Positions 6,440-53,262 of a stretch of 64,000 nucleotides of DNA are shown in pieces; the stretch's first letter is position 1; each line of letters begins with the position of its first letter. The stretch is from Alphaproteobacteria bacterium (GTDB taxonomy: Bacteria > Pseudomonadota > Alphaproteobacteria > Rs-D84), in NCBI GenBank assembly GCA_009784235.1, contig WRCC01000003.1, positions 328-64,327 of the forward strand, read 5' to 3'. The notes below the pieces were generated by a model. That model had not been told where the DNA came from and did no database searches. It saw nothing but the letters and a program-made list of their open reading frames with translations. The translations under genes and the position numbers were made by a program.

Positions 6440-8275
6440 TTATAATTGACATTCAACCGCAACAATATTTATCGTTCTGCAACCCGGACTTGACTGTCCC
6501 GACTGGTCCGGACAACGCGATGCCCCTTCGCCAGATGACACCAGCCGTCCACGCAAATTTGGGTTTTGTGATTCAAAATATTCCATTACTTTCTGTGCGC
6601 GGCATTCGGACAAAGCTTGGTTGTTTGCCAAACAATTATCTGCTGATGCGCGAATGTTTTGACTGTCTGTATGGCCAATAATATCAAAACAAGCATTGGC
6701 CAGCTTTGCATCATTCATTATAGCCAGTGCGCGTGACAATTCATTTCGGGCCAAATCGCGGTCGGCAAGGTTGTACCGACCACTGTTAAACAAAGTATTG
6801 GCATTCAGCGAAAATGTGGCAAATAAATCTGACGCAGACACTTGGGGCGTTGTTACGGGTGTGGTTGTGGATGGTGGGATATTGCCGACCGGGATTGCAG
6901 CCATAGTTTCGCCGAATTCTTCATCACTCATGCTGAAATCGTGGTGTTCCAGCGCGACATCAGCGACATCCTCTATACATTCGCCATTGCGCAGCACAAG
7001 TCCATCTCTTTCGCAGTCTGCATTTGTTAATGCACGTGTTTGCGGCGTGGCTTTGTCCAATTCGGCCATAGTCTGATTTTTCGCCCTATCAACTTCACGT
7101 CTTGCTTTATTGGTTTCAAGTCCGCGGCCGACAACACCGGATGCCAATGCACCGGCAGCCATACCCAATCCTGCGCCGACCAGTTCCGCGCGCCGACCGG
7201 CTTGTTCGCGTGTGATTGCGGCCGCATGTTCACGGAAAGTTGTCACATCAACGCCGAACCAATCTTCACTGCATTGATAAGTCATACCCGCGCCAATATT
7301 GCGCGATGCAAATGGTGTCGTGGAACCGCCGACCATAAATTCAACACTGAACACGCATTCCAGTGAACGCGTATCCAGCGTTCCGCGCATCGCCCGGCAT
7401 TCATTCTGCATCTGTTCACGGATAGCATAAAGGCGTTGTTCCAATCGTGCAACATCGCGTTCCGCATCGACGCGAACGCTTGCAAACAATTCCATCGCGC
7501 GGGCGCGCAATCCGTTGTCCGCCGATTGACATCCGCGATATACCTGTTCGCAATCAGCAATCGCACGGTCACCGCCCGATTTAGAAAGGCATCGCGACAA
7601 TCCGCGCCCACCGCAAGCCCGAAATATGCATGCGCGATAATTATCGCCACATTCTTTGATTTCCGTGAAACGACCCAGCAATGCATTCATATCGCGGTCG
7701 GATTTTATTTCTGCGGCGAATATCGTTAATTCACGCCCGCTGCAATTTGCATTTCGTGCACAAATATCTATTTTCCGGCCCCAAACCTGGTCGCCGTCCA
7801 GCGCGCATTTTGTAAAATCATTTCCGCATTCCGCCGACATACATTCGCGCAAAGCATTATCACACGCATTTCCGCGTCCTGTGCCTGTCATTGCCGCAAT
7901 GTTCGCAGTCGCCGCACTTGACGCTTCACCCGCGGCAATTGCCGCGCGTTGTTCTTGTATCCGGCGCGCCATCGCGTCATCATTACCGGAACGGGTTGCC
8001 GCATTTGTATCGGACATCATGGCAGAAAAAGCCGCCGCGCGATTTTCCAAATCCGGCCCGGCCACCACTTCTTCGACAATAATTTCTTCTTCAATTACCA
8101 CGGCGACCGGCGTCGGGCTTTGTTGTACGGCCAAACTGGGCACGCGTGCAACCGGGGCGGCTTGGGCGCGCGATGGTGCCGATGCAGTCGGCCGCGCAAC
8201 GACAGCGGCATCTGCAAACCCAATGCTGAATGCAGCCATCGCAAAACAAATAAAATATTTTTTTACATTCATCAT
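6440..8275 (-). CDS. Exported cysteine-rich protein with C-terminal OmpA-like domain
   Basis: Signal peptide MMNVKKYFICFAMAAFSIGFADA. Has CDNALRECMSAECGNDFTKC and many further Cys, then a Gly-zipper-like GAGLGMAAGALASGVVG. The C-terminus IIGHTDSQ...N..LS..RA..V..Y matches the OmpA_C pattern. Confidence 0.8.
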   Translation of the reverse strand: MMNVKKYFICFAMAAFSIGFADAAVVARPTASAPSRAQAAPVARVPSLAVQQSPTPVAVVIEEEIIVEEVVAGPDLENRAAAFSAMMSDTNAATRSGNDDAMARRIQEQRAAIAAGEASSAATANIAAMTGTGRGNACDNALRECMSAECGNDFTKCALDGDQVWGRKIDICARNANCSGRELTIFAAEIKSDRDMNALLGRFTEIKECGDNYRACIFRACGGRGLSRCLSKSGGDRAIADCEQVYRGCQSADNGLRARAMELFASVRVDAERDVARLEQRLYAIREQMQNECRAMRGTLDTRSLECVFSVEFMVGGSTTPFASRNIGAGMTYQCSEDWFGVDVTTFREHAAAITREQAGRRAELVGAGLGMAAGALASGVVGRGLETNKARREVDRAKNQTMAELDKATPQTRALTNADCERDGLVLRNGECIEDVADVALEHHDFSMSDEEFGETMAAIPVGNIPPSTTTPVTTPQVSASDLFATFSLNANTLFNSGRYNLADRDLARNELSRALAIMNDAKLANACFDIIGHTDSQNIRASADNCLANNQALSECRAQKVMEYFESQNPNLRGRLVSSGEGASRCPDQSGQSSPGCRTINIVAVECQL

Positions 8276-9177
8276 TGTTTAATTCGTTCACACGCCAGAT
8301 CTATATATTTACAGAAATTCGTCGCATGCCCGCGTTCATGCGCAAAATCGTTGCCACAGCGATTAGGCATATAAGAACATACTTCGGCAATGCATGCATT
8401 TTTTGTGGCGCCGCTGGCACAATCGGCGCGTGCGCCGGCCAACCGTCGGTCGCGTGCATCACGCCGCGCCGCCGCAACATTTTCAATATTGGTTGTACGC
8501 GCGGCAAAATAATTATCGCGCGTTGCAATCGATGCGGTGCGCAGTGTATCAACCGCCAGATGACCACAATCTTTTTCCACGACGCATGCCGCGAACACTC
8601 GGTTGAAATCATTGTTTTCCGCGCATCCCGCCCAATCCGCACCGCACCCGGCATCCGCGACCAAACACAAATTAATATCAGATTCGCATGCACGTTCGGT
8701 TTTTTGCGGCTTGGCCACCATCACACGCGCCAATTCATCCGCGGTTATAACGGCTTCGCATGATTTATTGATAAGTGTATCGTAATTTCTTTCCGCATCC
8801 GTGTCACCGCATCCAGCAATTTTTTCAAAGCATAATTTTCGCGCCGCCGCATAACGCGCACCTGGATCAGTAGGCAATTCGCGCAATTGCGCATCGGTCA
8901 AAACATTCGACGCCGCACGCCCAAGTGCCAAAGATTGCATTTGTGCCGCCGGCCGCCCAAAATTATATTCGTTCGTCACAGCGCCGCGCGCCAAATCCGC
9001 CAATTCACGGCTGGCGCACGCAATACACCGCGCACCCGGATTGGTTTCGATATTCGCTGCGCACGCAGAATCCAGGCATTGTATTAAATTCGGAACGTGG
9101 CAAACGGCCGCCGCACTCGCAACCATCGGCGCAAAAATAACAGCAAACAACGAAAACAACAGTGCCCGTTTGAACAT
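8272..9177 (-). CDS. Exported cysteine-rich protein (301 aa), family member
   Basis: Signal peptide MFKRALLFSLFAVIFAPMVASA. Has CHVPNLIQCLDSAC...CIAC, GCGADWAGC and RCGNDF. Its stop overlaps the start of 6440-8275 (ATGA). Confidence 0.75.
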   Translation of the reverse strand: MFKRALLFSLFAVIFAPMVASAAAVCHVPNLIQCLDSACAANIETNPGARCIACASRELADLARGAVTNEYNFGRPAAQMQSLALGRAASNVLTDAQLRELPTDPGARYAAARKLCFEKIAGCGDTDAERNYDTLINKSCEAVITADELARVMVAKPQKTERACESDINLCLVADAGCGADWAGCAENNDFNRVFAACVVEKDCGHLAVDTLRTASIATRDNYFAARTTNIENVAAARRDARDRRLAGARADCASGATKNACIAEVCSYMPNRCGNDFAHERGHATNFCKYIDLACERIKQ

Positions 9178-20900: not shown

Positions 20901-20948
20901 TGCAGCAATAGAAAAAACAACCGCTGAAGTTAAAAATAATTTTTTCAT
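17922..20948 (-). CDS. Autotransporter (type Va) with highly repetitive passenger
   Basis: Signal peptide MKKLFLTSAVVFSIAAMPSHS after a GGGAGAGG SD. The passenger is dozens of GGxIxNM-like units. The C-terminal ~280 aa has an alternating beta-strand pattern ending ..GANMGIRANF, typical of an autotransporter barrel. Confidence 0.88.
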   Translation of the reverse strand: MKKLFLTSAVVFSIAAMPSHSVSINHGEWWDSFNQWGGYMYGGTINNLNSGAYLYNMNSSNATATIINNMNGGYIDNVNGYASVWNPGGWTNYYYENAIIYNMYGGTINNISYARIDNMNGWGAVINNLNDSATVYSMNNGRITNINYGRISNMYGGEVQNFINGNIDTLHGGQINNMQGGYIGTLRNYGNIRSMTGGHIYNMYDNSLIMSMSGNARIDNMYDGTIYAMNGDARINNMNFGTIINKSNGYIENMRGGTIVYHNGGTINRFTNGTINNNAGEIRNMYNEGYTRIDSMTGGVITNLFDGYVGTVSGGTIENMFGGRIENLDGRNIVAMFNGQIGNIKNGGHIGLLMGGEIQDISGGSHIDMMTSGNIRNLRSSSIGTITSGRIDDIHDDAYIGLMTGGDIGTIHQGSVGSMTAGYIHDFSGSSWMGLMTGGSIGMMTDRAYIDNFNGGFINAFHGGYLNNIGRDADLGNIDNLIIIGNVESGGSTLDLNPGGYLLLGASDANNIFARDVNIGAGGGILELKQYTYDSNITFAMSGENSSIIISDNNLILPRILVGDEAAGARIEFSHYTADFKTATISQLDAHSDITFVMNTDYDAGIADHLTILSVLDWGVVDHKLAVGAANVGVIQGLELIDDQSGIMNFTLANGADYVGIGARNYVLANNAGIWSLNCVGDNCIEIPDDGNGNGGGGDVFVPTLSDAATNIGMHGAHRFHYAVRDIQNALHKRLGDLRLAGPVSKTRVWARTYGNQTEFNDLTKVKGNNFGAEAGIDRDMLGGSTTRMILGGGAGINSASHKTSALASRDGGGSATVPYANIYLTTLFPSNVYIDLIGRMAFLDSYAYYYDGADNKIDYTTKSLVAMVSAELGYQYKATDRLILEPRAELVYAYIDGDKFTDSAGFTGQYDASSSLSGQVGFLMRYNFESVQPYAKFTYLREFDGRTNITYDGVLLNSELPQSRYEYGIGLVGEITARMGMFGEFTYQHGDKEFKNYGANMGIRANF

Positions 20949-21012
20949 GAATCCTCTCCCGTTATTATACAATAGGAATTCTATCACATAATCATGAAAT
21001 AAAAAAGGTGTT

Positions 21013-21040
21013 AAAAATCGCCGCGATTGCGGCGATTTTT
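21013..21040 (-). terminator. Intrinsic terminator after 21043-23763
   Basis: A-run, ATCGCCGC-GATT-GCGGCGAT, T-run. Confidence 0.65.
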
Positions 21041-21042
21041 AT

Positions 21043-23763
21043 TTACATGGCAATGTCACGACACTCCTCAACCGGTGGTTCAGATTCGCATTGGACGCCG
21101 CGGCTGTCCCACAGCCCCAGGAACCCGCGACTGCCCTTTGTCCGGCAATTCTTTATAATTGTCGAAGTACAGTAATGACAGTTGCGCGTATTCCGATCGA
21201 ACAGCGACCACATTTCGCGCGTACCACCATCAAATTCGACTGAATGCTTGGATGATGCCAAGACGCCAATGGCCTTGACCGCCGCATCCGCAATCGCGAC
21301 AACCGGAACTGTTTTTGCCATTGTTGACGCAAGGCCGGTCGCTGTTTCCGCGGCTTTCGATGCGGTCATCGCAACCGTTGCCGCCGCAGTCGTGCCAACG
21401 CCCATAACAATGGTTCCGCCTGTGCCCCCTGTACGTGCACCCGCCGCCGCACCAGTTGTGGTTTCCATCGTCGTCTGGCCCAATGTTCCGGATGTGCGCG
21501 TTCCGCCCGCGGCAATCGCGCTGTCCGCAACGCCCGCAAATTCCATGACTATGGCATACGGAGTAATAATATTATTATTCATTTCCGCAGCGGTCGTGCC
21601 CTGGGCCATGCCGTTTGAAAATGGCAATTTATTACACATCAAGTTTGCCATATCAACGGATGCATTACGCATTGCGTCCGCGACAATTTCATTGAATTTC
21701 CGGTTGTAATTATCCTGGGCCGCGCGCAATGCGGAAACCGATATTTGCATTTTAACCTGGTTCAGCAAATTCGGAAAACGCGCCGCCGTCCGGCCGGCCG
21801 TGCCCGTAATCTGCGACGTGTCGCGGCCATTTATGCAGTATTGAATCTGCGGGTCTAATTCAATCATTTCAATGACGCGGTTAATTGTGCCCTGGATATT
21901 TTGCAATTCGAAATAGATATTATCGACAACGCGGCCGTATTGTTCCGGCACACCCAATCGGCCCAAGCTTTCGAAATAATCACGCAAATCAATCATTCCG
22001 GCGCCCAGTGTGATTTCATTTCCGTCCAAATTGCGCACGCGCGTCTGACCATTTCCGACATTAATTTTTCCGAACGATATCATGCCGCTGATGCGATATA
22101 CTCCGCCGTCTTTTTGCGATGCCAACGAACCTGTACCCATCGTATCGTCCGCGGCGAACCGATTACAATCGGACGTCGAACCACATATTTCCATCATCTT
22201 GGTTTCGACCAAGTTCTGGCAATTTTCCAGTGCGGCATTATCAACGTTCAGCCAAAAGCCCAACAGCAGGCGGTCCAAATCTTCCATCTTGAATTCCTGG
22301 CCGCGTTCGGCGTAATTTCGGCGGCAAATCGGCAAAGAATCCAGTGGACACATTTGGTGCATGAAATTGTAATCCATACCGATACAGTTTGAAAAATCCG
22401 AACCGCATCCAATTGGCGCGGGCCGCGTAAAACAGGTACGCACTTCGTCAGTACAAGCATCAACCGCGATGGAACGCAGACGCGCGACGACGTATGTCCA
22501 GATTTCCGGTTCCATCCGTTCACACGGGTCGATTACATTTTTACATGTCGCGCGGGCGACGGCGCCGTTACGGTCCAGACATGCCGCGATATTTCCACCT
22601 TGGCCAATCATCGGATCGGCGCACGCTTTCTGAATACACGCCGAAATATCGCCCATGCAGGATTGACGCATTCCAGATTCCAAATTCAATTCAGCCAATC
22701 GCATTTCCGGTGCAATATCGCGCAAGAAATTTGGCCACACGGTATCGCGCACGGCCATACATTGGTCCAGAATTCGTTCGCACATAATCTTTTTGGAATC
22801 CAGCATTTCCAATGTCGATGGCGAAATCTGGAATTTTTGTGTTGTTGCAACAGTTGTGCGCGCTGTACTGATGGCGCGATTATTCTGCATATTTTCCGCC
22901 GCCACAAAAGATGCACATCGTGACCAATCGGCACCACATGCATCATCGCCGCGCATGCATTGTTTGAAATTTATCAGACATGTTCCGGCATCGAAACGGT
23001 TTGCTTCTTCGAAAGATGCGCGCAATGCGCCGCGGACTTCGCCACGTGCTTCGGCCAATTCGGATTCAGCGCGGCGTTTTTCATTTTGTGTAAAATTATC
23101 AAATGCGCGACAATCATTTCGAATTTGCGTCGAATACAATTGCGTAATCATTTGTTCATCACGTGCGCGGCATGACGCCGGCATTTGAGGAGCGCACATT
23201 TTATGCGCGGCAGTGCGTAAAGATTCACCCGTCTGGTTTGCAATTGAATCAAAAGTTTCCGCGAACGGATTGCCTAAATCGAAAGCATTATTATTATCCC
23301 ACAGCGACATCATTTCCGCGCGCCGTCGGTCACGCGCCGCGCGCGTGCTTTCAGGCGCAGTCGCTGCATTCAATCCAACAACATTGCCCGCCGCGTCATA
23401 CCGACGTTCGCCGGTGAATATAATATCGGCACGTGCGCCTGCTTCGATTTTTTCGACCTCGATTGTACGCAGATTGTTTGCTTCGGCCAGTTGTTTTTCA
23501 ACATCCGTCAAGACTGCTTGGAATTTATCGTTATCATCACTGCATAAACAAGAACCCGCGGCTTCGTTATCTGAAATACAAAATTGATCCATACATCCAA
23601 AATATGCGTTGTGACATTCCGGCGAATAAAGACCCGTTGCTTCGACACGCTGGCGCACAGCCGTACCGCCTGGCACAACCGCAGTGCGCGCCGCAACGGC
23701 GGCCGCAGCATCGCCAATCGCGATGCCAATTATTGCAAATGATATTAAGAATATTTTTTTCAT
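21043..23763 (-). CDS. Large exported cysteine-rich protein (906 aa), CMDQFC family
   Basis: Signal peptide MKKIFLISFAIIGIAIGDAAA. Has CHNAYFGCMDQFCISDNEAAGSCLCS, NDCRAFDNF, ACGADWSRC and GCGSDFSNC. About 36 Cys by hand count. Gly/Ala/Thr-rich C-terminal segment. Confidence 0.8.
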   Translation of the reverse strand: MKKIFLISFAIIGIAIGDAAAAVAARTAVVPGGTAVRQRVEATGLYSPECHNAYFGCMDQFCISDNEAAGSCLCSDDNDKFQAVLTDVEKQLAEANNLRTIEVEKIEAGARADIIFTGERRYDAAGNVVGLNAATAPESTRAARDRRRAEMMSLWDNNNAFDLGNPFAETFDSIANQTGESLRTAAHKMCAPQMPASCRARDEQMITQLYSTQIRNDCRAFDNFTQNEKRRAESELAEARGEVRGALRASFEEANRFDAGTCLINFKQCMRGDDACGADWSRCASFVAAENMQNNRAISTARTTVATTQKFQISPSTLEMLDSKKIMCERILDQCMAVRDTVWPNFLRDIAPEMRLAELNLESGMRQSCMGDISACIQKACADPMIGQGGNIAACLDRNGAVARATCKNVIDPCERMEPEIWTYVVARLRSIAVDACTDEVRTCFTRPAPIGCGSDFSNCIGMDYNFMHQMCPLDSLPICRRNYAERGQEFKMEDLDRLLLGFWLNVDNAALENCQNLVETKMMEICGSTSDCNRFAADDTMGTGSLASQKDGGVYRISGMISFGKINVGNGQTRVRNLDGNEITLGAGMIDLRDYFESLGRLGVPEQYGRVVDNIYFELQNIQGTINRVIEMIELDPQIQYCINGRDTSQITGTAGRTAARFPNLLNQVKMQISVSALRAAQDNYNRKFNEIVADAMRNASVDMANLMCNKLPFSNGMAQGTTAAEMNNNIITPYAIVMEFAGVADSAIAAGGTRTSGTLGQTTMETTTGAAAGARTGGTGGTIVMGVGTTAAATVAMTASKAAETATGLASTMAKTVPVVAIADAAVKAIGVLASSKHSVEFDGGTREMWSLFDRNTRNCHYCTSTIIKNCRTKGSRGFLGLWDSRGVQCESEPPVEECRDIAM

Positions 23764-23783
23764 TCTCTCTCCGTTGAATGAAA

Positions 23784-25946
23784 TTACATGTTGGTGTTAT
23801 CGCAACTTTCGATTTCTTGGCATACCATTTGTGCTTTGGATTTGCCGCCAATCAATCCGACAACGCCGCCGACCGCGCCACCAATCAGCGCGCCCCATGG
23901 CCCGGCAACCATACCCGCACCCGCACCGCCGGCCGCCATCGCACCCGCGCTGCCCAATCCGGAATTGTTTGTTCCGCCGCGCGCACATACTTTTTGAACC
24001 GTGCAGATTTTGCAATTGCGTAATGCTTCTTCGAACACGTGCGTTGTAACCCATGTGCCCGGTTTGTTTTCGCTTTGCGCGTGCGATGAATTTCCAGCGC
24101 GGCGTGCATTAAATACTTCGTCGCAATTTTTACGTGCATCCGCCACCGACATTGCACGCGACAATTCAGCCTTGCGCGCGGCCCATGCGCGTTTCAACCG
24201 GTCTTCGGCCTGGATAACCGCAATGCTTTTTGCGATGACATTTACATTTTTACCCGCATTGCCAACACATCGTTTAACCGTTGGGTCAGATTCCAATTGC
24301 TTGAATAATTGGTCTGATTCCGTACGGGCAAACATTCGTATCGGCGATACGCCGTCGCGTCCGGCGGTGATTAATCTGTTCAAATCATCCATCGTCAAAG
24401 CGGTTTCAATCGCCGGATTTATCGATATGCACGAAACCATGTCCGCGCCGCACGTACGGTTCAGCACGTCCGCGAAATAGTTGATACATCCATCGGTCAG
24501 CTGGGAATCAACCTGCCACAATGCGGACGCCAATATAGTATCGAAATCGTCATTGTTCGCGCATGATGGGAACATTTCCTGGGGGCACATTGCGGCGATG
24601 CCGACGGCTTGTTCACCGATACATGCTGGGTTCGAATAATCAATTCCGCATTTGTCTTGCAAACATTTCGTGACATCATTCTGGCAGAAACGCGAACGAA
24701 TAAAGCCCAAATTCCCAGAAACAATATTTTTCATCCCAGGCACAAGCGTTTCACATTCATTGATTATCGGACAAATTCCGGCGGCAACATTGATGTTGGA
24801 AAGGCAATCTGCACGCGTGCCAATGCGACATGAATCTTCCAAGCATGCATCAATGCGCAGCAAGCAGGACCCGCGTTTATCACGTTCTGCGAATGCTGCG
24901 GCTTCGCGCAGAATCGTGACTGTGCGTTCTTCCCATCTTTCTGTAACATACGAACGTGACGCCAAACATTGGTCCAGAATATTATCGCACGCACGCGCAC
25001 GCATAGACAGCAATCCAGCATCCAAACAGTTTTCGAAATTATCGCCGCATCCGCCCTTGTTCGAAACACAAGATTCAAACGCGACCAAGCATTCACCCGC
25101 ATTGAAACGATTCGTCACGTCGCGCATTTCCCATCGCGCGGCACGAACTTGCCTCTCGGCCAGTGCAAGATTTGATTCCGCGATTTTTTTCTGTTCACCC
25201 AAGAATGCATTAAACGCACGACAATCATTTGTGATTAAACGTTCATATAAAATTTCTTCCATTCGCGCATCCGGGCCGCATGCTTCCAACCTGCTCGCGC
25301 ATGATGCACGCGCCATCTGATATAAATTGCGCCCTATTTCTTCGTCCGCATCCAGCGCGGCTGACGACCCACCACCAATCCACGCCATAAAATCAATACC
25401 GCGACTTTTTGCTTTTTGTCCGGTTCCAAATGCCCAATCCGCGTGTGCGCCGTACCGTTCGCGTTCGACGCCTTCGTTCGCGGCGCGTGATGCACGCGTC
25501 ATAATATCGTTGATTTCTTTAATCAAAGGTTTGGATTGATTTATGTTATCGGAACAAGCGCACCGTTCGCCTTCGGTTGAATCCATCAAACAGAATTGGT
25601 CCATGCAATCACGAAATTCAGTGCGGCAATTGTTTGAACTGCCCGCTGCGGGGGTGGGTTCTGGTGTGCCGGCTGATATTGCAATTATTGCTTTTTCCAT
25701 TGGGGTTGCCGGCGCCGGTGCAACGGGAACAAATGGTTGAACAGATGGCCCGCCACCGCCACCGCCGCCCAATCCCGCAACCATGCTGGGCGCACGTTGA
25801 CGCGCCGCGGTCTGGGAAGCATTCGCACGAACCGCCGTCGCGCGCGTTGGTGCATGCGCGTCTTCGGATCGTTCTGCGCCATGTGCCACGCCGCATAATA
25901 AAATTACGGAAAATACCGGAATCAAACCGGAAATTATTTTCTTCAT
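23784..25946 (-). CDS. Large exported cysteine-rich protein (~720 aa), CMDQFC family
   Basis: ATG at 25946 after a GGGAAGAG SD gives MKKIISGLIPVFSVILLCGVAHG. Has CRTEFRDCMDQFCLMDSTEGERCACS, NDCRAFNAF and GCGDNFENC. C-terminal Gly-zipper AGGAGAGMVAGPWGALIGGAVGGVVGLIGG. Confidence 0.8.
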   Translation of the reverse strand: MKKIISGLIPVFSVILLCGVAHGAERSEDAHAPTRATAVRANASQTAARQRAPSMVAGLGGGGGGGPSVQPFVPVAPAPATPMEKAIIAISAGTPEPTPAAGSSNNCRTEFRDCMDQFCLMDSTEGERCACSDNINQSKPLIKEINDIMTRASRAANEGVERERYGAHADWAFGTGQKAKSRGIDFMAWIGGGSSAALDADEEIGRNLYQMARASCASRLEACGPDARMEEILYERLITNDCRAFNAFLGEQKKIAESNLALAERQVRAARWEMRDVTNRFNAGECLVAFESCVSNKGGCGDNFENCLDAGLLSMRARACDNILDQCLASRSYVTERWEERTVTILREAAAFAERDKRGSCLLRIDACLEDSCRIGTRADCLSNINVAAGICPIINECETLVPGMKNIVSGNLGFIRSRFCQNDVTKCLQDKCGIDYSNPACIGEQAVGIAAMCPQEMFPSCANNDDFDTILASALWQVDSQLTDGCINYFADVLNRTCGADMVSCISINPAIETALTMDDLNRLITAGRDGVSPIRMFARTESDQLFKQLESDPTVKRCVGNAGKNVNVIAKSIAVIQAEDRLKRAWAARKAELSRAMSVADARKNCDEVFNARRAGNSSHAQSENKPGTWVTTHVFEEALRNCKICTVQKVCARGGTNNSGLGSAGAMAAGGAGAGMVAGPWGALIGGAVGGVVGLIGGKSKAQMVCQEIESCDNTNM

Positions 25947-26031
25947 CTCTTCCCTTTTTATATCTCTTGTAAATTTTATCAGAAAAGGCCCGCAGGGGCA
26001 AATCATTATTTGTTCCCGTAATTATTATTTT

Positions 26032-26109: not shown

Positions 26110-26186
26110 GCGCGCATAGCTTAACTGGATAAAGCATCTGACTACGGATCAGAAGACTCAGGGTTCGAATCCTTGTGCGCGCGCCA
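26110..26186 (+). tRNA. tRNA-Arg (anticodon ACG)
   Basis: GCGCGCA TA GCTT AACTGGATAA AGCA T CTGAC TACGGAT... The anticodon stem TCTGA/TCAGA carries loop CTACGGA, the T-arm is CAGGG TTCGAAT CCTTG, and the acceptor TGCGCGC is followed by G CCA. 77 nt. Confidence 0.9.
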
Positions 26187-27155: not shown

Positions 27156-27989
27156 ATGCAAATTCGCAAATTATTTTTGCCATTGTTTTTGTTCAGCGCA
27201 TTCGCATCGCCATTGTTTGCAGAATCTGAAACGGCCACAGAACCCACCCAGGAAGTCACGGACGCAGAACAACGATTGGCCGAAGCAAGGGCACGACAAA
27301 ATTCTTTGGCAAATCGCGCCATCGGCGGCGTTGCAATTACCGGCGGCGGAATTGGCGGCGGCCAATTGGCCCAAGGGTTGGCCGAACGCCGCGCAGACCA
27401 AGCGGCCGCGGATGAAATGGAATCATATCGCGCAACAATTCGGTGCGGATTGACTGGCGGCCCGCATAATACGCCAATTGATGCAACCGGCGAAACGCCG
27501 GGATATTCACAACAATTTTTCACACTGATGTCAGATTATAATGATACCGCCACGCGACTGCGCGTTATCAAAGAAGCACTTTCATTGCCACCTGGCATTG
27601 AATCCGAAGCGCGAATAAATACAGACGTTCTGTACAGCAACGAAGCCATGGCCGAAATCGACCGCACGGGCGCATTTGGAAATACCGCCCAGCAAAGATT
27701 GGATGACGGTGATGCGCAAGCTCGAATTAATACCGGTACCACAGTTGCTGCGGTCGGTATTGGCGCCGGGTTGGTTGGCAATGTCCTGGTCAATCATATA
27801 CAGCCGGAATTGGGTGCAGGCAACATAGATAAAGAATTGGAAAAAATCCAAAACCAAGAACCGAAACAGGAACGTGCCGACGGCGAAAAAACCGGTGTTG
27901 GTAATGTTATTTCTGCGGTTGGCAGTGCAGTGGGCTCTGCCGGCAGCGCAGTTGGAAATGTTGTTGGAAACGTATTTTCAAGGAATTAA
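27156..27989 (+). CDS. Exported hypothetical protein with Gly-zipper-like segments (277 aa)
   Basis: Signal peptide MQIRKLFLPLFLFSAFASPLFA. Has GGVAITGGGIGGGQ, AAVGIGAGLVGNV and GNVISAVGSAVGSAGSAVGNVVGNV. Confidence 0.6.
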   Translation: MQIRKLFLPLFLFSAFASPLFAESETATEPTQEVTDAEQRLAEARARQNSLANRAIGGVAITGGGIGGGQLAQGLAERRADQAAADEMESYRATIRCGLTGGPHNTPIDATGETPGYSQQFFTLMSDYNDTATRLRVIKEALSLPPGIESEARINTDVLYSNEAMAEIDRTGAFGNTAQQRLDDGDAQARINTGTTVAAVGIGAGLVGNVLVNHIQPELGAGNIDKELEKIQNQEPKQERADGEKTGVGNVISAVGSAVGSAGSAVGNVVGNVFSRN

Positions 27990-28491: not shown

Positions 28492-30615
28492 ATGACGAAA
28501 ATATTCACCGTTTTTGTTGCGGCTTTGTTTTGCGTACCTGCGTTTGCGACGCCACCACAGAACACGCGCGCCGTGGGCGGTACAACGAATGTTCGCACCG
28601 CTGCGACGCCTGTGACTACCACGACCACACCACGTGCCGCCGCGACACCAGAAATTGTCGGGCGCGCTGCGGCAACACTGCCTGCCCGTGCGGGCACAAC
28701 CGTGCCAACAATTGCGTCGCGAACTGCATCCCCGGAAATCACGACGCGCAGTGCGACAACGCAGCCACGCGCAATAATTGCCCAAACGCCGACCACTGCA
28801 CGCAGTGCGACCACGCCATCTGTCGCGCGTTCATCCATCGGATTGGCGCCGGCGGGCGCATCGATGGGCGGCGATTATAATTCTTGCCGCGATGCATATT
28901 TCACATGCATGGATCAATTTTGCGGCAATGCAAATGATAATTATCGCAGATGCACTTGTTCCGCACGACTGGACGATATCCAAGCACTGGAACGCCAAGT
29001 TCGCCAAACCGGCCAACAATTACAAGACTTTCATGATTTGAATATAGATGTGATATCCATGTCTTCGGCCGAAGTTGCGGCAATGTTAAAAGGAACCGCC
29101 GGCGAATATGCAGGCGCGTCTGCGCGTCGCACGGATGACAGCGCCGCCGCACAAACACTGGCCGGCATATCGGCGGTATTGGCTGGCACACGGGGCGCAG
29201 CATTGGCCACTGCGGGAAAATTGGATATCGGCGGTGATATAAATGAAATCTGGGCGGCATCCGCACTTATCGGCGGCGCGGATATACAAAATTTAACGGG
29301 CCGAAAATTATATGACCAAGTCCACGCGCAATGCGTCGTTATGGCGGAACCTTATTGCGGCCGCCAAGCAACCGTGAACATGGTCGTTGCTGCATACGGT
29401 ATGTATATCGAACAAGATTGCAATGTTGTCAAAGCCCAATTGGAAGGTCGCAGAATCCAAGCCGCGGCCGCAATCCGCGCGACGGAACGCGAAATGGGCG
29501 CCGCGCGTCTGGACAATTACAACGTCCATAATTCCGCCGAAATCAACGAATGCATCGCCCAAGTACGCCGTGATATCACGTCCCCCGACGCGTGCGGCCC
29601 GGAATACGTGCGATGTATGGATACAACCGGAATGTATTTGGATTTTGTCACGGGTGAACCTCTGTACACACCGCAGTTGTTTCATTTGGAAAATCTGTTG
29701 TCATTGGATGGCGATGTATTGGTCAATCCACAAAACCGATTGTTTGTATCTTTGCTAAACAACAAGAAACCATTTGCCGCACGCGGATTGGACACTTGTC
29801 GCGATATATCCGGCCATGTATGGGATGAATTTTTGCGCACCGCGATTGTCGAAATTTACCAGGGCCAGCAAAAGCGGGTACGCACCGCCAAAGACGATTG
29901 CGTCAATGTTTTAAACCAATGCTTTGACCAAAGTTTGACCCAGTTGAAAGATTTTTCCCACCAAGCCGCTGAAATGCTGGCCGGATATCGCATTGAATTG
30001 TCCGAAGAACTTTGTCGATCGCGACTGGATACTTGTGCGAACCTGTATGGCGGGGGCGAACCGGGATTGGCCGAACTGCGCGCGCTGATGCACAATATTG
30101 GAAATGCGATGCTGTATGATAATTGTCCGACTTTGATGAATGATTTTGCAAGAACGATTTGCACACCATTATCGCATGATACTGTGAACGTGTTCCCGTA
30201 TGATTGTCGTTCTTTTGAACCCGGCGGCATTGTCGAATGCGGCAGCAATGATAAACTGCAAGACTGCACAGACACATTATTTTACCGCTTTGTAAATTAT
30301 GCCAAAGATTATTGCGTACGTCCGGGCGAAAGAGAAGAAATATTCAAAGACCAAAAAATAATGGGCTTTATAAATTCAACGCTGGATGATTTGAAATTCA
30401 GCATGCGGAAAATGCTACGCGAACGATGCGAAAGTTTCGACGGTCTGTGGAAAGATTCAAATGATTGTACAGCACACACATCCGCAGGTATATGCAACGC
30501 TTCTGGCACTGGATGTGAATGGTACACAGCATGGAATATATGTATTATAAAACCAAATGAAAAGTATAAAGAAATCGGCGCAAATAATGTCTGGGGATTC
30601 TGCACAGAAAAATAA
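28492..30615 (+). CDS. Large exported cysteine-rich protein (707 aa), CMDQFC family
   Basis: Signal peptide MTKIFTVFVAALFCVPAFA, then a Thr/Ala/Arg/Pro-rich ~110-aa linker, then CRDAYFTCMDQFCGNANDNYRRCTCS, ACGPEYVRC and many further Cys. Confidence 0.8.
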   Translation: MTKIFTVFVAALFCVPAFATPPQNTRAVGGTTNVRTAATPVTTTTTPRAAATPEIVGRAAATLPARAGTTVPTIASRTASPEITTRSATTQPRAIIAQTPTTARSATTPSVARSSIGLAPAGASMGGDYNSCRDAYFTCMDQFCGNANDNYRRCTCSARLDDIQALERQVRQTGQQLQDFHDLNIDVISMSSAEVAAMLKGTAGEYAGASARRTDDSAAAQTLAGISAVLAGTRGAALATAGKLDIGGDINEIWAASALIGGADIQNLTGRKLYDQVHAQCVVMAEPYCGRQATVNMVVAAYGMYIEQDCNVVKAQLEGRRIQAAAAIRATEREMGAARLDNYNVHNSAEINECIAQVRRDITSPDACGPEYVRCMDTTGMYLDFVTGEPLYTPQLFHLENLLSLDGDVLVNPQNRLFVSLLNNKKPFAARGLDTCRDISGHVWDEFLRTAIVEIYQGQQKRVRTAKDDCVNVLNQCFDQSLTQLKDFSHQAAEMLAGYRIELSEELCRSRLDTCANLYGGGEPGLAELRALMHNIGNAMLYDNCPTLMNDFARTICTPLSHDTVNVFPYDCRSFEPGGIVECGSNDKLQDCTDTLFYRFVNYAKDYCVRPGEREEIFKDQKIMGFINSTLDDLKFSMRKMLRERCESFDGLWKDSNDCTAHTSAGICNASGTGCEWYTAWNICIIKPNEKYKEIGANNVWGFCTEK

Positions 30616-30635: not shown

Positions 30636-31331
30636 ATGAAAAAATATTTAATTTTTGCACTTTGTTTGTTGGTCACGCCGGCGGTTGCTGACTGGTGGAA
30701 AATGCCAACGATTTGCAAACCATCTGCGAACCGATGCTGGCCATCGATGGGCGTGGGATTTGACGGTGGACTGTGGGATGCGGAATCTGCATGCTGGGGC
30801 ATGAAATTAATTTGTCCGGGCGCGCTGACCGCCAATGCACATGAACCAGAACCGATTTCCAAAGTGGCGCTGGGTAAAAATACCGGAATCAATACAGACT
30901 TTGATACGAATGCATTGAATTCGCGTGAACGATGTTTTGGTCTGCGCAAGACAACAGCAAATGGTGCAATGGCAACTGTGAACGGGCAAAGCGTTCGCGT
31001 ATGGTGCCGCGGCGTTTTGGATAATCCGGATGAAGAATTGGCAAACGGCGAAATTACGTATGGCACGCAACCAACATGTGCGCAATTGGCTGCGAATGGT
31101 TTTGTCGCGACGCTGAACGGAAATTGTTATGGTACAAAGTATGCAACGAACGATTACTTTATTGAATGCGGAACTGCGCTGTTGCCAACACGTATCGTTC
31201 AATTACGCGGTGCAACTGGCTGGACGTCTGGTGCGGCGGCGGGCGGCACGGGATTGGCAAATACAAATTCAATATTTGACGCAATGCAGCAAACATCAAC
31301 GACACAAAGAAACGAACATTTTAATAGGTAA
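30636..31331 (+). CDS. Exported cysteine-containing hypothetical protein (231 aa)
   Basis: Signal peptide MKKYLIFALCLLVTPAVA. Starts 20 nt downstream of 28492-30615, so probably co-transcribed. Confidence 0.6.
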   Translation: MKKYLIFALCLLVTPAVADWWKMPTICKPSANRCWPSMGVGFDGGLWDAESACWGMKLICPGALTANAHEPEPISKVALGKNTGINTDFDTNALNSRERCFGLRKTTANGAMATVNGQSVRVWCRGVLDNPDEELANGEITYGTQPTCAQLAANGFVATLNGNCYGTKYATNDYFIECGTALLPTRIVQLRGATGWTSGAAAGGTGLANTNSIFDAMQQTSTTQRNEHFNR

Positions 31332-38590: not shown

Positions 38591-38636
38591 CATCTAGCTT
38601 TGAATGTATAGACACAAATTGACAGGAAAGAAAGAA

Positions 38637-39937: not shown

Positions 39938-39939
39938 CT

Positions 39940-49620: not shown

Positions 49621-52600
49621 TTAAATACCGATTTTATGATTTAATTTCAGCATAAATATCGATTCGTTTCCAAAGCGGTCTGTATGATTTGGATTGTCAC
49701 GGTATATAAATCCAAATGCACCGTTCGTTGCGGGGCCAAGCGGCGTGCGATATGCCATTGAAAATCTTGTTTCGCGATTACGCGCCGCCATGTTCAAATT
49801 CGCAATGTATGATTCGCCCACAACATCATATCCAGCATCCGTTTCAACCAGTTCATAGTCACCGGTTACGTATTGCATCATGCCGCGCGTCACGCCCAAC
49901 GGCCGCGCGATATTAAACGACCAACCGCCATATTCCATTCCGACAGAATAAGCATCCGACCGCAGGTCCGACAATCCCAAAATAAATTCGCCATTCGGAT
50001 TACCGCGTGTTTGTGCATGGGTTGCGCGCATATTGAATCGCAATCTTTCACCCGCACGCACAACTGCAACATTATCAATATAAATCGTACCGCCGCCGCC
50101 CAAATTCAAAAGCCCATCTGAATAAGCGCCCAAAACTGTATCCGATTCATTTACAAATCCAATGTTCGCACCAAATGCAAATACACCCATATCGTACATC
50201 GCACCAGATTCAATACCATGCACACCGCCCAGTCGTGCATGTTGTATGCGTCCGGAAATCGACGGGTCGTTTTCAAGCAGGCCTTCGTCTGTCACACTGC
50301 CCGCAAAGCCACGTGCACCGAATGACCAGCGTCCAAATTTATATTGCGCGTCACTTGACACCGCGTGCGATGCCAATCCAAGAATCGGATTTTCGCCATC
50401 ACCGCGCAATATTTTTGCATCACCCGCATGGCGTTCGTATTTCGCACCGAATGACCAATCACCAAATGATTGGCGTAATGATAGTTTATCCAGATTTCCA
50501 TATTCATCGCGACCGGAATTCAAACTTTCACGAAAAGACATTTTGAAATCAAGTCCGCCCGCCGATGATTCATGTTCATCCAATGTCGTTTTGAAATCAC
50601 CCAATACATCACCCATGGAAACAGCGCGTCGACCAGCCGATAAATCAAAAGAATTTTCAAATATACGCGCCATTGACATAGTGCCATCCGCGGATTCAAC
50701 ATAATCAAATACTGGTGCAGATACAGTGCCCAGGTCCAACCCGAATACGCCGGACGATGCAAAACCGGTTGCCGCCGCCGATGCACCGGATACACTTGCC
50801 GTACGCCATACTGCATTACCGGCGGATGAATTTATCCGGTCACCCGTAAAGAAAAATACCCGTGTTCCCGGACGCGTTGCGCGTTCCAGATTGACCAATC
50901 CGTATCCAAATACTTCGGCGAATATGTCGGCGTAATTGCTGCCGTCTGCCAGAACCTGACTTTGATATTGGCCCGGTAATGTATAAAGATTTTGTAATTG
51001 TGCCGCGGTCAAAGCACGTCCATCAGACGTCACAGCCAACAACGTAAATATCTGTTGATTCGTCATGTATGAAAATGCGCCTTGGACTGAACCAACCGCA
51101 CCGGCCATTGCGGCAACGGCTTGCTCTGTTGTTGCGCCCGCGGCTGCAAAGCACCATGGATCAACGGTTGATGTCCCGCGGCCCGCCATGCCGCATGCAC
51201 GCGCCGCGTACGTATTTGTGCCATCAGACCACGCAGACAATCCAATTGTTCCGCGGCCGCCCGTGCCATCGTATCCGGCCACAGTACCAACGTTCGCGGT
51301 ACCAGTTCCGCCACCAAATTGCACCGCAACAACCGACATAAACAAATGACGCAAGTTTGCATACAAAGCGGGCGCATAGTTTTCCAACGTCGCATCCAAA
51401 ATCGAAATTGTTGAATCCGGCCCGATACCAAATTTATATTCGCCAGTTCCAAAAATTAACATTTGATTTGACAGTGTCGAAAACGCTTGGTTCGCAATCA
51501 GCCCCTGCTTTTCTGTATCGGTTGCATCGGCCCACGCGCTGCGGTCATAATATTGATGTATTAATTGAAAATATGCACCCAGGTTAGATGAAGTCAGTCC
51601 CAAATTCTGCATCGATGATACAGTCAGTGTATTTGTATTCCGCATTTCTGGCACCACTGCCGCATTCGCAATGATGGATGTTCCAGACCCGCGGCCATAC
51701 CCGCTGATTGCGTCCAATATAGCGCCGAAATTTTGATAATCTTGGTCGGCCAATGTTCCGGCCAGAATAATATCCGTGCCATTAATTTCAAACACATTTT
51801 GCGACGCACCACCGACATTATCATACGCCAAACCATTACGTCCAATGAACCATACTATGTTGGATTCGCCCGGTGCCGTCAAAGTCAATAACCCGGTCGT
51901 CGCATCAAAAGATGCAGTATAAGTAACACCACCGATATCAATGGATGTAACGGTTGCGAATGTTGTGCCGCCAACAACGTTATCGCCTTCGACAGTTCCA
52001 GATGTGTCCGCAGTCCATAATTTCCCACCGCCGGTGCGATACAGCAATAATTGGCCATTGGGCAAGAATCCGTAAAAATCGCCGACGTCCGGTGTTATGT
52101 CGCCTTCCCATCCTGCAACAATTTTCGCCAATGACGATTCGTAATCGGACGCGTACGGGTTAAATACACTGCCATGGCCGGAATAATCAAACCATGGAAA
52201 TTCATTCAATATATTTACATCAATATTTGCATATTTGCGCGTGACATTTGCTTCGTACCGAATGCATACGCCGCCCGCCATCTGCAAACAATTATTCAAA
52301 TTAGTAAATCCGATAAATCCGTCCGCCGCACTGCCCGTTGGATTGATACCATGCGCGGTAATCAAAGCAACCGGAATCGGCCGACCACCGCCAACAGTGA
52401 CGCTGGTCAGCGGTTCGCTGCCTGTATATCCGCGGAATTCAAATGTAAAATTGGCCAAATTTTGCGGTGTGCGCGTTGCATTATTCAAACGCAAGGTTGA
52501 TTGACCAAGATATCCACGCGCGAACGGCGCATATCCATGCATCATCAATAAATAATTCTGGCGATTGGCGACCAAGCTGCCCGTCAATGGGTCGCGCCCG

Positions 52601-53262
52601 GACATAAATGCGAATGTCCAATCTCTTACATTCTGGCTGCCCACTGGGTTATTCGGACTGTATAAATTTAATTCATCAGTAAAATCGTATCCCGGTTGCA
52701 ATGTCGCCGGTCCAACGGGCAAAGCGCCCACCGACCATTCAGTTCCGGTGCCATTATTATTTCCACCACCACCCGGCGGATTGGTTGTCGGACGGTCACC
52801 GCCACCACCAGTAGAATTATTATTACCACTGCCGTTCAGTGCGTTCGCAACAAAATACACCCCACCTGCGACAATGGCCGCCCCTGCGGCGGCCAAAGCT
52901 ATACTTTGGGCTGTGGACAATCCGCTGAACAGCCCGCCGGATTCTTCACGCGGCAATCGTTGTCGATATTGTCGGATCTGTCGGTCGCATCCGGATGAAT
53001 CCGCACCATGCAATTGCAATATTTGAGCCGCACGCACATCGTTATTCATCAATGCCGTGCAAACAATCGATAATCCAGTTGAATCAATAAAGTTAACGTT
53101 TGCGCCCGCAGCAATCAATCTTTGAACCTGGGCCACATCGCCAGCGCGTGCGGACGACAATAATTGCGCCGCCATTTGGAATTCAGTCGCAGCAGACGCA
53201 CCCGCACCAAAAGCGCAGAAACCAAGTAACACAGCAAAAATTTTAATACGTTTCAGAAACAT
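49621..53262 (-). CDS. Very large exported protein: N-terminal ankyrin-like repeats, degenerate subtilase-like segment, beta-rich C-terminal region
   Basis: Signal peptide. ARAGDVAQVQRLIAAGANVNFIDSTGLS...ALMNNDVRAAQILQLHGAD is ankyrin-like. AAGATTEQAVAAMAGAVGSV......FGYGLVNLERA resembles the S8 Ser-box region with no Ser at the expected place. The last ~330 aa have an alternating beta pattern. Confidence 0.7.
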   Translation of the reverse strand: MFLKRIKIFAVLLGFCAFGAGASAATEFQMAAQLLSSARAGDVAQVQRLIAAGANVNFIDSTGLSIVCTALMNNDVRAAQILQLHGADSSGCDRQIRQYRQRLPREESGGLFSGLSTAQSIALAAAGAAIVAGGVYFVANALNGSGNNNSTGGGGDRPTTNPPGGGGNNNGTGTEWSVGALPVGPATLQPGYDFTDELNLYSPNNPVGSQNVRDWTFAFMSGRDPLTGSLVANRQNYLLMMHGYAPFARGYLGQSTLRLNNATRTPQNLANFTFEFRGYTGSEPLTSVTVGGGRPIPVALITAHGINPTGSAADGFIGFTNLNNCLQMAGGVCIRYEANVTRKYANIDVNILNEFPWFDYSGHGSVFNPYASDYESSLAKIVAGWEGDITPDVGDFYGFLPNGQLLLYRTGGGKLWTADTSGTVEGDNVVGGTTFATVTSIDIGGVTYTASFDATTGLLTLTAPGESNIVWFIGRNGLAYDNVGGASQNVFEINGTDIILAGTLADQDYQNFGAILDAISGYGRGSGTSIIANAAVVPEMRNTNTLTVSSMQNLGLTSSNLGAYFQLIHQYYDRSAWADATDTEKQGLIANQAFSTLSNQMLIFGTGEYKFGIGPDSTISILDATLENYAPALYANLRHLFMSVVAVQFGGGTGTANVGTVAGYDGTGGRGTIGLSAWSDGTNTYAARACGMAGRGTSTVDPWCFAAAGATTEQAVAAMAGAVGSVQGAFSYMTNQQIFTLLAVTSDGRALTAAQLQNLYTLPGQYQSQVLADGSNYADIFAEVFGYGLVNLERATRPGTRVFFFTGDRINSSAGNAVWRTASVSGASAAATGFASSGVFGLDLGTVSAPVFDYVESADGTMSMARIFENSFDLSAGRRAVSMGDVLGDFKTTLDEHESSAGGLDFKMSFRESLNSGRDEYGNLDKLSLRQSFGDWSFGAKYERHAGDAKILRGDGENPILGLASHAVSSDAQYKFGRWSFGARGFAGSVTDEGLLENDPSISGRIQHARLGGVHGIESGAMYDMGVFAFGANIGFVNESDTVLGAYSDGLLNLGGGGTIYIDNVAVVRAGERLRFNMRATHAQTRGNPNGEFILGLSDLRSDAYSVGMEYGGWSFNIARPLGVTRGMMQYVTGDYELVETDAGYDVVGESYIANLNMAARNRETRFSMAYRTPLGPATNGAFGFIYRDNPNHTDRFGNESIFMLKLNHKIGI

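Follow-up and report, generated by a model that had tools for sequence, protein, structure and literature searches.

Exported, cysteine-rich and disulfide-stabilised envelope proteins are represented by OmcA and OmcB of the chlamydiae and by the Hcp proteins of Helicobacter. OmcB and OmcA are exported, contain about 4-5% conserved cysteine and are encoded by neighbouring genes of bacteria that have small genomes and depend on a partner, and stiffening of the envelope by their disulfides has been proposed. The Hcp proteins (Sel1-like) consist of exported alpha-helical repeats, in which adjacent helices are stapled by regular cysteine pairs with a distance of about seven residues. A comparable arrangement is found in the twin-Cx9C and twin-Cx3C (CHCH) hairpins of the mitochondrial intermembrane space, an oxidising compartment, where two cysteines on one helix face pair with two on the next segment. 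Here, two adjacent genes of an alphaproteobacterium of the lineage Rs-D84 were analysed, which are located on the minus strand of a 64-kb stretch of contig WRCC01000003.1 (64,000 nucleotides, in the following called the window) and code for large cysteine-rich paralogs with predicted export, named A906 and B720:

21043..23763, minus strand: A906, open reading frame (ORF) of 906 aa, predicted exported protein with 36 cysteines, second gene of the putative operon
23784..25946, minus strand: B720, ORF of 720 aa, predicted exported paralog with 36 cysteines in the mature chain, first gene of the putative operon

Judged by sequence comparison, A906 and B720 belong to a superfamily specific to the Rs-D84/Candidatus Enterousia-like lineage and are its two largest members; the families A, B and C are secure members of it, and the families E and D are connected at the level of short modules only. 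The proposal that A and B are part of a new lineage-specific, disulfide-stapled envelope scaffold in small-genome gut bacteria has, in our judgement, about an even chance of being correct.

Comparison with described protein families and folds

The chlamydial proteins and Helicobacter Hcp are the closest kind of protein already described, and the sequence models that define these two families were matched by neither A906 nor B720. Like OmcA and OmcB, the two proteins are predicted to be exported, are rich in cysteine (4.1% in A906 and 5.2% in B720) with conserved cysteine positions, and are encoded by adjacent genes in a lineage with small genomes. In contrast, no chlamydial family in Pfam is matched at E<=0.1 by the A, B, C, D and E proteins of the window or by 40 A orthologues, the lipobox of OmcA is lacking from A and B, and A and B are predicted to be alpha-helical proteins of 720 to 906 aa. 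Moreover, the chlamydial complex needs an intermolecular network, whereas the even cysteine number of A and B points to intramolecular pairs, and unlike the chlamydial case the present organism encodes peptidoglycan enzymes and OmpA-type anchors. The likeness to chlamydial cysteine-rich outer-membrane proteins, which was drawn in an earlier note made from this DNA alone, therefore holds as an analogy between exported cysteine-rich proteins and not as a relationship in sequence.

With Hcp, A and B share predicted export and predicted helicity, and their strongly enriched spacing C-x6-C (9 occurrences compared with about 1.2 expected) may correspond to the cysteine pairs of Hcp. However, no Sel1 or TPR family of Pfam is matched by A, B or C, a regular 36-residue repeat is not present, internal repeats are barely detectable (34% in an hhalign self-comparison), and the unit C-x6-C...CG-x-D-[FW]-x-x-C as well as the five-cysteine CMDQFC signature are unique to the A/B/C family. 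The principle of fixed-spacing cysteine pairs on one helix face is common to A/B and the CHCH hairpins, but the spacing is x6 instead of x9 or x3, no CHCH family of Pfam is matched, the second cysteine pair of A906 is placed in a loop and not in a helix by AlphaFold2 (AF2), and the bacterial proteins are about ten times larger.

Scans against Pfam, NCBIfam and PHROGs with A, B, C, D, E, F and J proteins as queries returned no family for A, B or C. The only matches in the A, B and C scans were low-complexity matches on the Gly-rich segment (C19orf12, tape-measure PHROGs, Baculo_PEP_C). An OmpA C-terminal domain was not matched by A, B or C at the Pfam gathering score, and neither an autotransporter barrel nor a TPS domain was found in A or B with Pfam and NCBIfam. 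Neither the single proteins nor profiles of 40 orthologues gave a PDB sequence match at E<=1. Foldseek, for which both AF2 models were compared with the PDB and the A906 model additionally with viral structures, gave none at E<0.05; the best E-values were 0.78-1.2 (PDB) and 0.055 (viral). The nearest matches, which were not significant, were rod-like helical proteins (spectrin, alpha-actinin, Munc13 MUN domain). The similarity of levivirus coat proteins to the C-terminal beta domain (about 75 residues, Foldseek) was dismissed as not significant, and multi-haem or Fe-S proteins were ruled out due to the lack of CxxCH and the presence of a single CxxC per protein. The motif string CMDQFC had no match in the literature searched. 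The earlier description of an unrecognised protein family was thus borne out, as no significant match to a characterised family was obtained from Pfam, NCBIfam, PHROGs, the PDB or Foldseek, and at the sequence level A, B and C constitute an undescribed family with no detectable relative or fold match in these collections.

Gene organisation and extent of the family

The organisation described in the earlier note, i.e. two adjacent minus-strand genes for 906 and 720 aa with a 20-nt gap and a terminator only after the second, was recovered in all its parts (ORFs, spacer and hairpin). A longer ORF of B720 reaches up to position 26006; the MKK start at 25946 was preferred, because it is preceded by the ribosome-binding site (RBS) AAGGGAAGAG, because the public gene call P0270 (100% identical, 720 aa) begins there, and because the only promoter-like site of the upstream region lies upstream of 25946. 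The B720 protein of the window is also encoded on a contig of the JGI metagenome 3300010882. The following elements flank or separate the two genes:

25973..26001, minus strand: candidate sigma-70-like promoter, TTGCCC-17-TAAAAT with extended TG, upstream of the B720 start, by consensus match only
23764..23783, minus strand: intergenic spacer of 20 nt between the B720 stop and the A906 start, with the GGAGAG RBS for A906, read directly from the sequence
21012..21041, minus strand: intrinsic-terminator-like hairpin, 13-bp stem followed by a T-run, directly 3' of the A906 stop codon

Between B720 and A906 no terminator site comparable to the hairpin behind A906 is present. The short spacer with GGAGAG and the hairpin located only after A906 therefore argue for a two-gene operon, B followed by A, and the two paralogs are predicted to be co-transcribed. 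A tRNA-Arg(ACG) gene (26110-26186, plus strand) is located between the B720 promoter region and secG.

The relationship between the two proteins was evident from BLASTP (26.5% identity over 486 aa, E=4e-35), and both proteins matched a third window protein, C707, at 2.5e-16 (A906) and 3e-12 (B720). With hidden Markov models (HMMs) of the families, built from orthologues taken from related loci, the A-family model detected B720 at 8e-56 and C707 at 2e-25 in hmmsearch. Profile-profile comparison with hhalign gave probabilities of 100% for A-B, with an alignment spanning nearly the full length of both, 99.6% for A-C and 98.6% for B-C. By these comparisons A906, B720 and C707 are secure paralogs. 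C707 and the two further cysteine-rich ORFs that had been counted to the family are:

28492..30615, plus strand: C707, third clear paralog; N-terminal signature exact, linker long and Thr/Arg/Ala-rich
8272..9177, minus strand: E301, predicted exported protein with 20 cysteines, a 7-Cys core module and the degenerate N-terminal signature C-x7-CLDSAC-x11-C-x2-C; motif CESDINLCLVADAGCGADWAGC
6440..8275, minus strand: D611, predicted exported protein with 23 mature cysteines, cysteine modules, a glycine zipper and an OmpA-like peptidoglycan-binding C-terminus; 4-nt overlap with E301

For E301, hhalign with family A reached 78.6% (E=1.7e-5) over one module, C-x6/7-C ... C ... C-x6-C-x6-C-x6-C, and for D611 the values were 86.5% with E and 28% with A. 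BLASTP and HMM searches of D611 and E301 with A, B and C were not significant, except for a match of the C-family HMM to D611 at 2.7e-4 over the signal peptide and the low-complexity linker. Full-length homology of D611 and E301 with A/B/C was therefore ruled out by BLASTP, HMM and hhalign; of their proposed status as degenerate members, the common short cysteine modules remain (79-87%) and the full-length paralogy does not. The proposed extent of more than 10 kb for the family had to be reduced, since the five ORFs total 9.75 kb and the three secure members 7.0 kb.

Cysteine content, signatures and sequence blocks

The hand count of about 36 mature cysteines per chain, an even number, was confirmed exactly by a computational recount: A906 contains 36 cysteines, none of them in the signal peptide, and B720 contains 37, one of which is located in the signal peptide, so that 36 remain in the mature chain. 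In both proteins the dominant cysteine spacing is x6 or x7. Neighbouring cysteines at the spacing C-x6-C occur nine times in each of the two proteins with about 1.1-1.3 expected, and none of 20,000 simulations reached nine; C707, D611, E301 and F231, a further predicted exported protein of the window, are likewise enriched. The extended motif C-x6-C-x4-8-CG-x-[DN]-[FWY]-x2-3-C is present twice each in A906 and B720 and once each in D611 and E301, and in no other ORF of the 64-kb window.

All sequence blocks that the earlier note had quoted are present verbatim, namely CHNAYFGCMDQFCISDNEAAGSCLC of A906 with CRTEFRDCMDQFCLMDSTEGERCAC of B720, NDCRAFDNF with NDCRAFNAF, ACGADWSRC with GCGDNFENC, and CERILDQCMA with CDNILDQCLA, as are the Gly/Ala/Thr-rich segments that are followed by cysteine-containing tails in both proteins. 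The first of these blocks is the N-terminal signature:

23542..23616, minus strand: N-terminal 5-Cys signature of A906, residues 50-74, CHNAYFGCMDQFCISDNEAAGSCLC, cysteine columns invariant in orthologues
25554..25628, minus strand: N-terminal 5-Cys signature of B720, residues 107-131, CRTEFRDCMDQFCLMDSTEGERCAC, cysteine columns invariant in orthologues

In agreement with the earlier reading, C-x6-CMDQFC-x9-C-x-C is exact in 28492-30615 (C707). A906, B720 and C707 each combine a signal peptide, C-x6-C[ML]DQFC-x9-C-x-C, a helical body and a 7-Cys core, which consists of C-x6-7-C, C, and then C-x6-C-x6-C-x6-C in A and B or C-x13-C-x6-C in C.

The C-terminal domain contains the single C-x2-C of each protein (CHYC in A906 and CKIC in B720), arranged as C-x2-C-x5-7-C. 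A orthologues end in ...C[EQ]DIxM-COOH (consensus CEDIxM) and B orthologues in ...CQEIESCEDINM, an invariant extreme C-terminus common to both families; in the window (codons 21046-21063 and 23787-23822) A906 ends in CRDIAM and B720 in CDNTNM. This shared tail may be a docking or recognition tag, e.g. a PDZ ligand. The linkers behind the signal peptides of B720 (25800-25880) and D611 (8120-8200) have the motif [SA]R[AMVI]P[NST][ML] in common, e.g. ARAPNM and SRMPTM, which was found in 13/71 B and 22/56 D orthologues compared with 9/1337 background ORFs.

Orthologues and sequence constraint

A906 had more than 1000 matches among 5.8 billion proteins and B720 had 515, none of them with a precomputed Pfam domain. 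Among the matches listed, all public relatives with a source name are annotated as 'hypothetical protein', and the metagenome-assembled genomes are labelled Alphaproteobacteria or Rickettsiales. An exhaustive profile search of 1.84 billion representatives (50% identity clusters) yielded only 872 clusters at E<=1e-3, and the superfamily is therefore narrow. In GTDB contigs, with one genome per species, an A orthologue is encoded in at least 346 stretches (species-level genomes), of which the best 80 were used for the description of hosts and conservation. These 80 originate from guts of ruminants, horses, humans, birds and termites, and many are named Candidatus Enterousia, a genus that belongs to GTDB order Rs-D84 and has genomes of about 0.75-1.0 Mb (PMC12306168). 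In the literature on Enterousia and Rs-D84 no mention of A/B/C-type proteins was found, and the word 'cysteine' occurs zero times in PMC12306168.

All 36 cysteines of A906 are 100% conserved in the 80 orthologues at an overall identity of only 42-53%, and each of the 36 mature cysteines of B720 is conserved to at least 95% in 66 orthologues. The lengths are constant (A 811-907 aa for nearly all; B about 690-770 aa) and no hypervariable regions were found in the A and B orthologue alignments. Frameshifted or decaying orthologues, which the earlier note had considered as grounds against its reading, were not encountered; by sequence the A and B orthologues are intact and full-length, and nothing suggests decay. 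In order to place these values, window proteins were compared with their counterparts in the same related loci, and the following identities to the window protein were obtained:

ClpX: 70-75%
PriA: about 67%
PrmC, M23 and M48 peptidases: 50-55%
A: 42-53%
B: 38-46%
C: 38-53%
F: 34-49%

The identity of A is near the values of PrmC, M23 and M48, and A is therefore constrained about like an ordinary housekeeping enzyme.

Parity of the cysteine number

For families A to F, cysteines were counted from the first conserved cysteine onward and the counts are therefore insensitive to start-codon errors; for J and X1213, two further proteins of the conserved gene cluster described below, a heuristic signal-peptide cut was used. 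The numbers of orthologues with the prevailing parity were:

A: even in 82/82, with 36 or 38 cysteines
B: even in 70/71
E: even in 54/55, mostly 20 cysteines
X1213: even in 40/46
C: odd in 46/58, 22-43 cysteines
D: odd in 52-53/56, 11-49 cysteines
F: odd in 51/51, always 9 cysteines
J: odd in 25/33, 1-42 cysteines, six orthologues with a single cysteine

These counts come from related sequences, so that binomial p-values overstate their significance. Parity is kept while cysteine numbers change many times, and cysteines were therefore gained and lost in pairs; such paired gain and loss is what disulfide bonding predicts and argues for it. A bias towards even cysteine numbers in exported proteins is reportedly a signature of disulfide formation and oxidative folding in genomes, as Dutton et al. 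are said to have described (PNAS 2008). The even counts of A and B therefore fit complete intramolecular pairing. The four odd families form two adjacent gene pairs, C-F and D-J, for which the simplest reading is therefore one intermolecular disulfide per pair, or a homodimer. On these grounds the earlier view of A and B themselves as cross-linkers gained no support in its stated form, and the odd families C, D, F and J became the candidates for intermolecular links.

Predicted architecture

AF2 models of A906 and B720 were made with 40-sequence alignments. The A906 model comprises a short linker, a helical region (48-712) with several helices of 35-55 residues, a low-confidence segment and a C-terminal beta domain. 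In the B720 model an 88-residue low-confidence linker (16-103) is followed by helices (104-617) and by beta strands at 630-657 and 706-719. The C-terminal elements are:

21256..21504, minus strand: low-confidence Gly/Ala/Thr-rich segment of A906, residues 754-836
21046..21249, minus strand: C-terminal 5-Cys beta domain of A906, residues 839-906, with five strands at 839-905 in the AF2 model
23832..23975, minus strand: putative glycine-zipper segment of B720, residues 658-705, predicted local distance difference test (pLDDT) <50, a loop insertion in the C-terminal beta domain between strands 644-657 and 706-719

Within each 4-Cys unit, the A906 model has the first C-x6-C on a helix and CG-x-D-[FW]-x-x-C in the loop behind it. 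Residues 636-708 of B720 gave a sub-threshold match to Pfam C19orf12 (PF20721) with 19.9 bits at a cut-off of 30 bits.

Conserved gene cluster

Synteny was examined in related loci (from the set L001-L148), among them 52 long genome loci and metagenome loci. B followed by A was found in 52/52 long loci, C707 is located divergently upstream of B in 46/52, and F231 follows C in 40/52. In a second conserved block, seen in metagenome loci, X1213 lies on the strand opposite to E, D and a J277-type gene, and A converges on this block in several loci (L082, L087, L113, L129, L072/L073). From these arrangements, with L072, L073 and L081-L143 as the loci concerned, a supercluster of eight genes, X1213 / E-D-J / A-B / C-F, was assembled for related genomes, which in the window is split into four separate places. 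The partners not yet described are:

30636..31331, plus strand: F231, 231 aa, predicted exported protein with 9 conserved cysteines, conserved downstream partner of C707, non-homologous to A, B and C
27156..27989, plus strand: J277, short predicted exported glycine-zipper protein with a single cysteine; orthologues elsewhere adjoin D, usually with an OmpA-like domain
49621..53262, minus strand: X1213, 1213 aa, predicted exported protein with an N-terminal ankyrin repeat, located divergently next to E-D-J in other genomes

Homology of F231, J277 and X1213 with the family was ruled out (hhalign probabilities <12%). An OmpA-like peptidoglycan-binding domain terminates 20/33 J orthologues. In D it is present in only 2/56 orthologues (the window and L114:2924-5959), and there J is short or absent; the Pfam OmpA match of D611 reached 28.2 bits at a cut-off of 27.2. 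Residues 367-606 of D611 match the J-family HMM at 5e-10 (367-611 correspond to window positions 6440-7177). From these matches, the OmpA-like anchor domain has apparently been transferred or fused between the neighbouring D and J genes, which points to a joint action of the two proteins.

A, B, D and J resemble the glycine-zipper outer-membrane proteins (SlyB/Pcp, Rickettsia 17-kDa antigen, YiaD) in their GxxxG-type Gly/Ala-rich segments, and D611 and J orthologues join a glycine zipper with an OmpA-like domain as YiaD does, with a match to NCBIfam YiaD_Gzip_OmpA below its cut-off. Unlike the glycine-zipper outer-membrane lipoproteins, A, B, D and J have no lipobox and do not match glycine-zipper Pfam families at threshold, and the zipper accounts for only a minor portion of the very large, cysteine-rich helical proteins A and B.

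Residues 28-94 of X1213 match ankyrin/DARPin (designed ankyrin proteins) at 7e-15, and no Pfam or NCBIfam family was found for this protein. By eye its C-terminal region is barrel-like (alternating hydrophobic residues). A phage or mobile origin of the genes was ruled out on account of the order-wide conserved synteny and because the PHROG matches (B, J) lie only on Gly-rich low-complexity segments.

Predicted export and envelope location, and proposed mechanism

Signal peptides were assigned with n/h/c-region rules and from their conservation among orthologues. Canonical signal peptides with a basic n-region, a hydrophobic core and an AxA-type site were recognised in all window copies and in 77/80 A, 64/66 B and 57/58 C orthologues, so that both lines agree with the Sec signal peptides earlier assigned to A906 and B720. 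The window also encodes SecG, SurA-like, M23, SLT and VanY proteins, and the organism is therefore taken to be a diderm with peptidoglycan. The earlier suggestion of a disulfide-rich envelope location gains indirect support from the signal peptides, the invariant cysteines and their even number, the Gly-zipper segments and the OmpA-bearing D and J proteins of the cluster; its cross-linking part, as stated, is not supported for A and B.

For the preferred scaffold reading the following course can be envisaged. A and B would be exported by Sec with removal of the signal peptide, and in the periplasm each would fold to a long alpha-helical body pinned by 18 intramolecular disulfides. Many of the cysteines would be placed as C-x6-C pairs on a single helix face at a distance of one heptad, followed by the CG-x-D-[FW]-x-x-C segment. 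The C-terminus of both proteins would form a small Cys-knotted beta domain ending in the invariant CEDIxM, and the glycine-zipper segment, which is part of this domain in B and directly precedes it in A, would let the proteins oligomerise or attach to the outer membrane from its inner side. One cysteine would stay unpaired in each of C, F, D and J and could form intermolecular disulfides, in the simplest case between C and F and between D and J, and the OmpA-like domain on J or D would bind peptidoglycan and tie the scaffold to it. A/B, C/F and E/D/J together would then constitute a disulfide-stabilised structural scaffold of the cell envelope.

Several observations weigh against this scaffold. 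Neither A nor B contains a recognisable membrane- or peptidoglycan-binding domain, and their glycine-zipper reading is based on composition and on a single sub-threshold Pfam match. C707 of the window, with 28 mature cysteines and a divergent C-terminal region, is an even-numbered exception to the odd rule of its family. The AF2 models are of moderate confidence, with a mean pLDDT of 66 for both proteins and predicted template modelling (pTM) scores of 0.41 (A) and 0.34 (B). Dsb-like genes (DsbA, DsbB, thioredoxin-like CxxC) were found neither in the window nor in the 148 related loci, which cover a small fraction of any genome; motifs and phmmer with E. coli DsbA and DsbB queries were used. 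Finally, according to PMC12306168 the lineage is strictly fermentative, lacks a respiratory chain and has an incomplete glycolysis, and the usual DsbB-quinone route may therefore be missing.

A more far-reaching version, to which we attach a rather low probability, would be an order-wide covalent lattice of the envelope built from this private superfamily, with A, B and E as internally stapled rods and with C-F and D-J each joined by single intermolecular disulfides and tied to peptidoglycan through an OmpA-like domain on either partner. If it were true, an unconventional oxidation route would be needed in place of the respiratory quinone pathway for DsbB, or the disulfides would form only on exposure to oxidants, e.g. 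during transmission between hosts.

Competing explanations

Instead of stabilising the envelope, A and B could be surface-displayed or released adhesins or effectors for attachment to, or nutrient extraction from, a partner or host cell, with disulfides that merely toughen them in the gut lumen. The lineage has been proposed to depend on a partner organism and to use 'hypothetical membrane-bound proteins' in cell-cell interactions (PMC12306168), which would suit such a role, as would the very large size and the predicted long helices of A and B, the stalk-like long low-complexity linkers of B, C and D, the synteny of the predicted exported ankyrin protein X1213 in relatives, and the autotransporter gene immediately downstream of A906 (17922-20987, minus strand; 1021 aa with a pertactin-like passenger, N/G/I-rich repeats and a beta-barrel; Autotransporter 91 bits). 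However, this autotransporter has no orthologue in the 52 related loci and is therefore a lineage-specific addition outside the conserved cluster. Moreover, neither an outer-membrane translocation domain nor a barrel, a lipobox or a known sorting signal is found in A and B, and the OmpA domains carried by D611, the D protein of L114 and most orthologues of the non-homologous neighbour J act in the periplasm. The conservation of sequence and length at housekeeping level without hypervariable regions likewise speaks against exposure to a host: the host-interaction alternative of the earlier note is weakened by the identity of A (42-53%, next to 50-55% for PrmC, M23 and M48), by constant lengths and by the lack of a secretion or barrel domain. 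We regard this explanation as unlikely, although it deserves to be kept in mind.

The conserved cluster, present across hundreds of species, could alternatively encode an undescribed envelope-spanning machine for transport, secretion or cell-cell conduits, built from the eight genes and with A and B as periplasm-spanning rods. Standard uptake transporters are reported to be missing from the Enterousia-lineage genomes (PMC12306168), so that an alternative uptake route would be needed, the long-helical AF2 bodies and the peptidoglycan-anchoring partners would be appropriate components, and the invariant CEDIxM terminus could serve docking. Against this, the conserved cluster contains no ATPase, inner-membrane platform or channel-forming protein, no similarity to known secretion, pilus or Tol/Lpt/Mla components was found with Pfam, NCBIfam and Foldseek, and the cluster is split in the window, so tight co-regulation is therefore not required; a machine of this kind appears improbable. 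It is more improbable still that the cysteines are mostly reduced and serve as metal ligands (Zn, Fe, Cu, Fe-S) or as a periplasmic thiol buffer or sink in a strict anaerobe. An anoxic, reducing habitat with no respiratory chain to drive DsbB, the lack of Dsb genes in the window and the 148 loci, and the C-terminal C-x2-C-x5-7-C arrangement would be in line with reduced cysteines, but parity kept across varying cysteine counts is expected from pairing and metal sites usually have three or four ligands with His mixed in. Furthermore, there is one C-x2-C per protein, the dominant helical C-x6-C is not a known cluster-binding motif, and neither a metal-binding or cytochrome match in Pfam nor CxxCH was found.

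Other features of the window

A tRNA-Pro(CGG) gene (17776-17852, minus strand) is located just downstream of the autotransporter gene, and 16154-17401 (minus strand) encodes a protein of 415 aa whose C-terminus is a phage-lysozyme domain (98 bits); no family is matched by its N-terminal part. The island-like block 36383-44396 contains a PAPS-reductase/DUF3440 and ParB_N gene pair (IbrA/IbrB-like), two family-less ORFs, an ABC exporter and an N6/N4 DNA methylase with a RAMA domain, and may be a DNA-modification or defence module. Three hypothetical proteins with signal-peptide-like N-termini, encoded at 47401-48549 (plus strand), 56109-57119 (minus strand) and 26595-27095 (plus strand), have 17, 11 and 4 cysteines, respectively, no family match and no relationship to A/B/C; the 336-aa protein of 56109-57119 has an internal duplication in which DPFDARG...GADPMSGV.KAC occurs twice.

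Significance

Rs-D84/Candidatus Enterousia-like bacteria are uncultured, have genomes below 1 Mb and occur widely in human, ruminant, horse, bird and termite guts (PMC12306168). The significance of the finding is tempered by the wholly inferred function of A and B and by the frequency of lineage-specific orphan families among uncultured bacteria. The family is kept in all 52 long loci, was detected in at least 346 species-level genomes, has no match to anything described and, together with its cluster partners, takes up one percent or more of a genome smaller than 1 Mb. It is therefore likely to be central to how the cell is built or to how it attaches to a partner. The 18 disulfides predicted for each of the two proteins in a strict fermenter raise the question of how oxidative folding would proceed without a respiratory chain, and the parity pattern leads to concrete predictions as to which proteins are covalently linked. 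In addition, the family would be usable as a specific marker and as a source of candidate antigens in order to detect, label or enrich this lineage.

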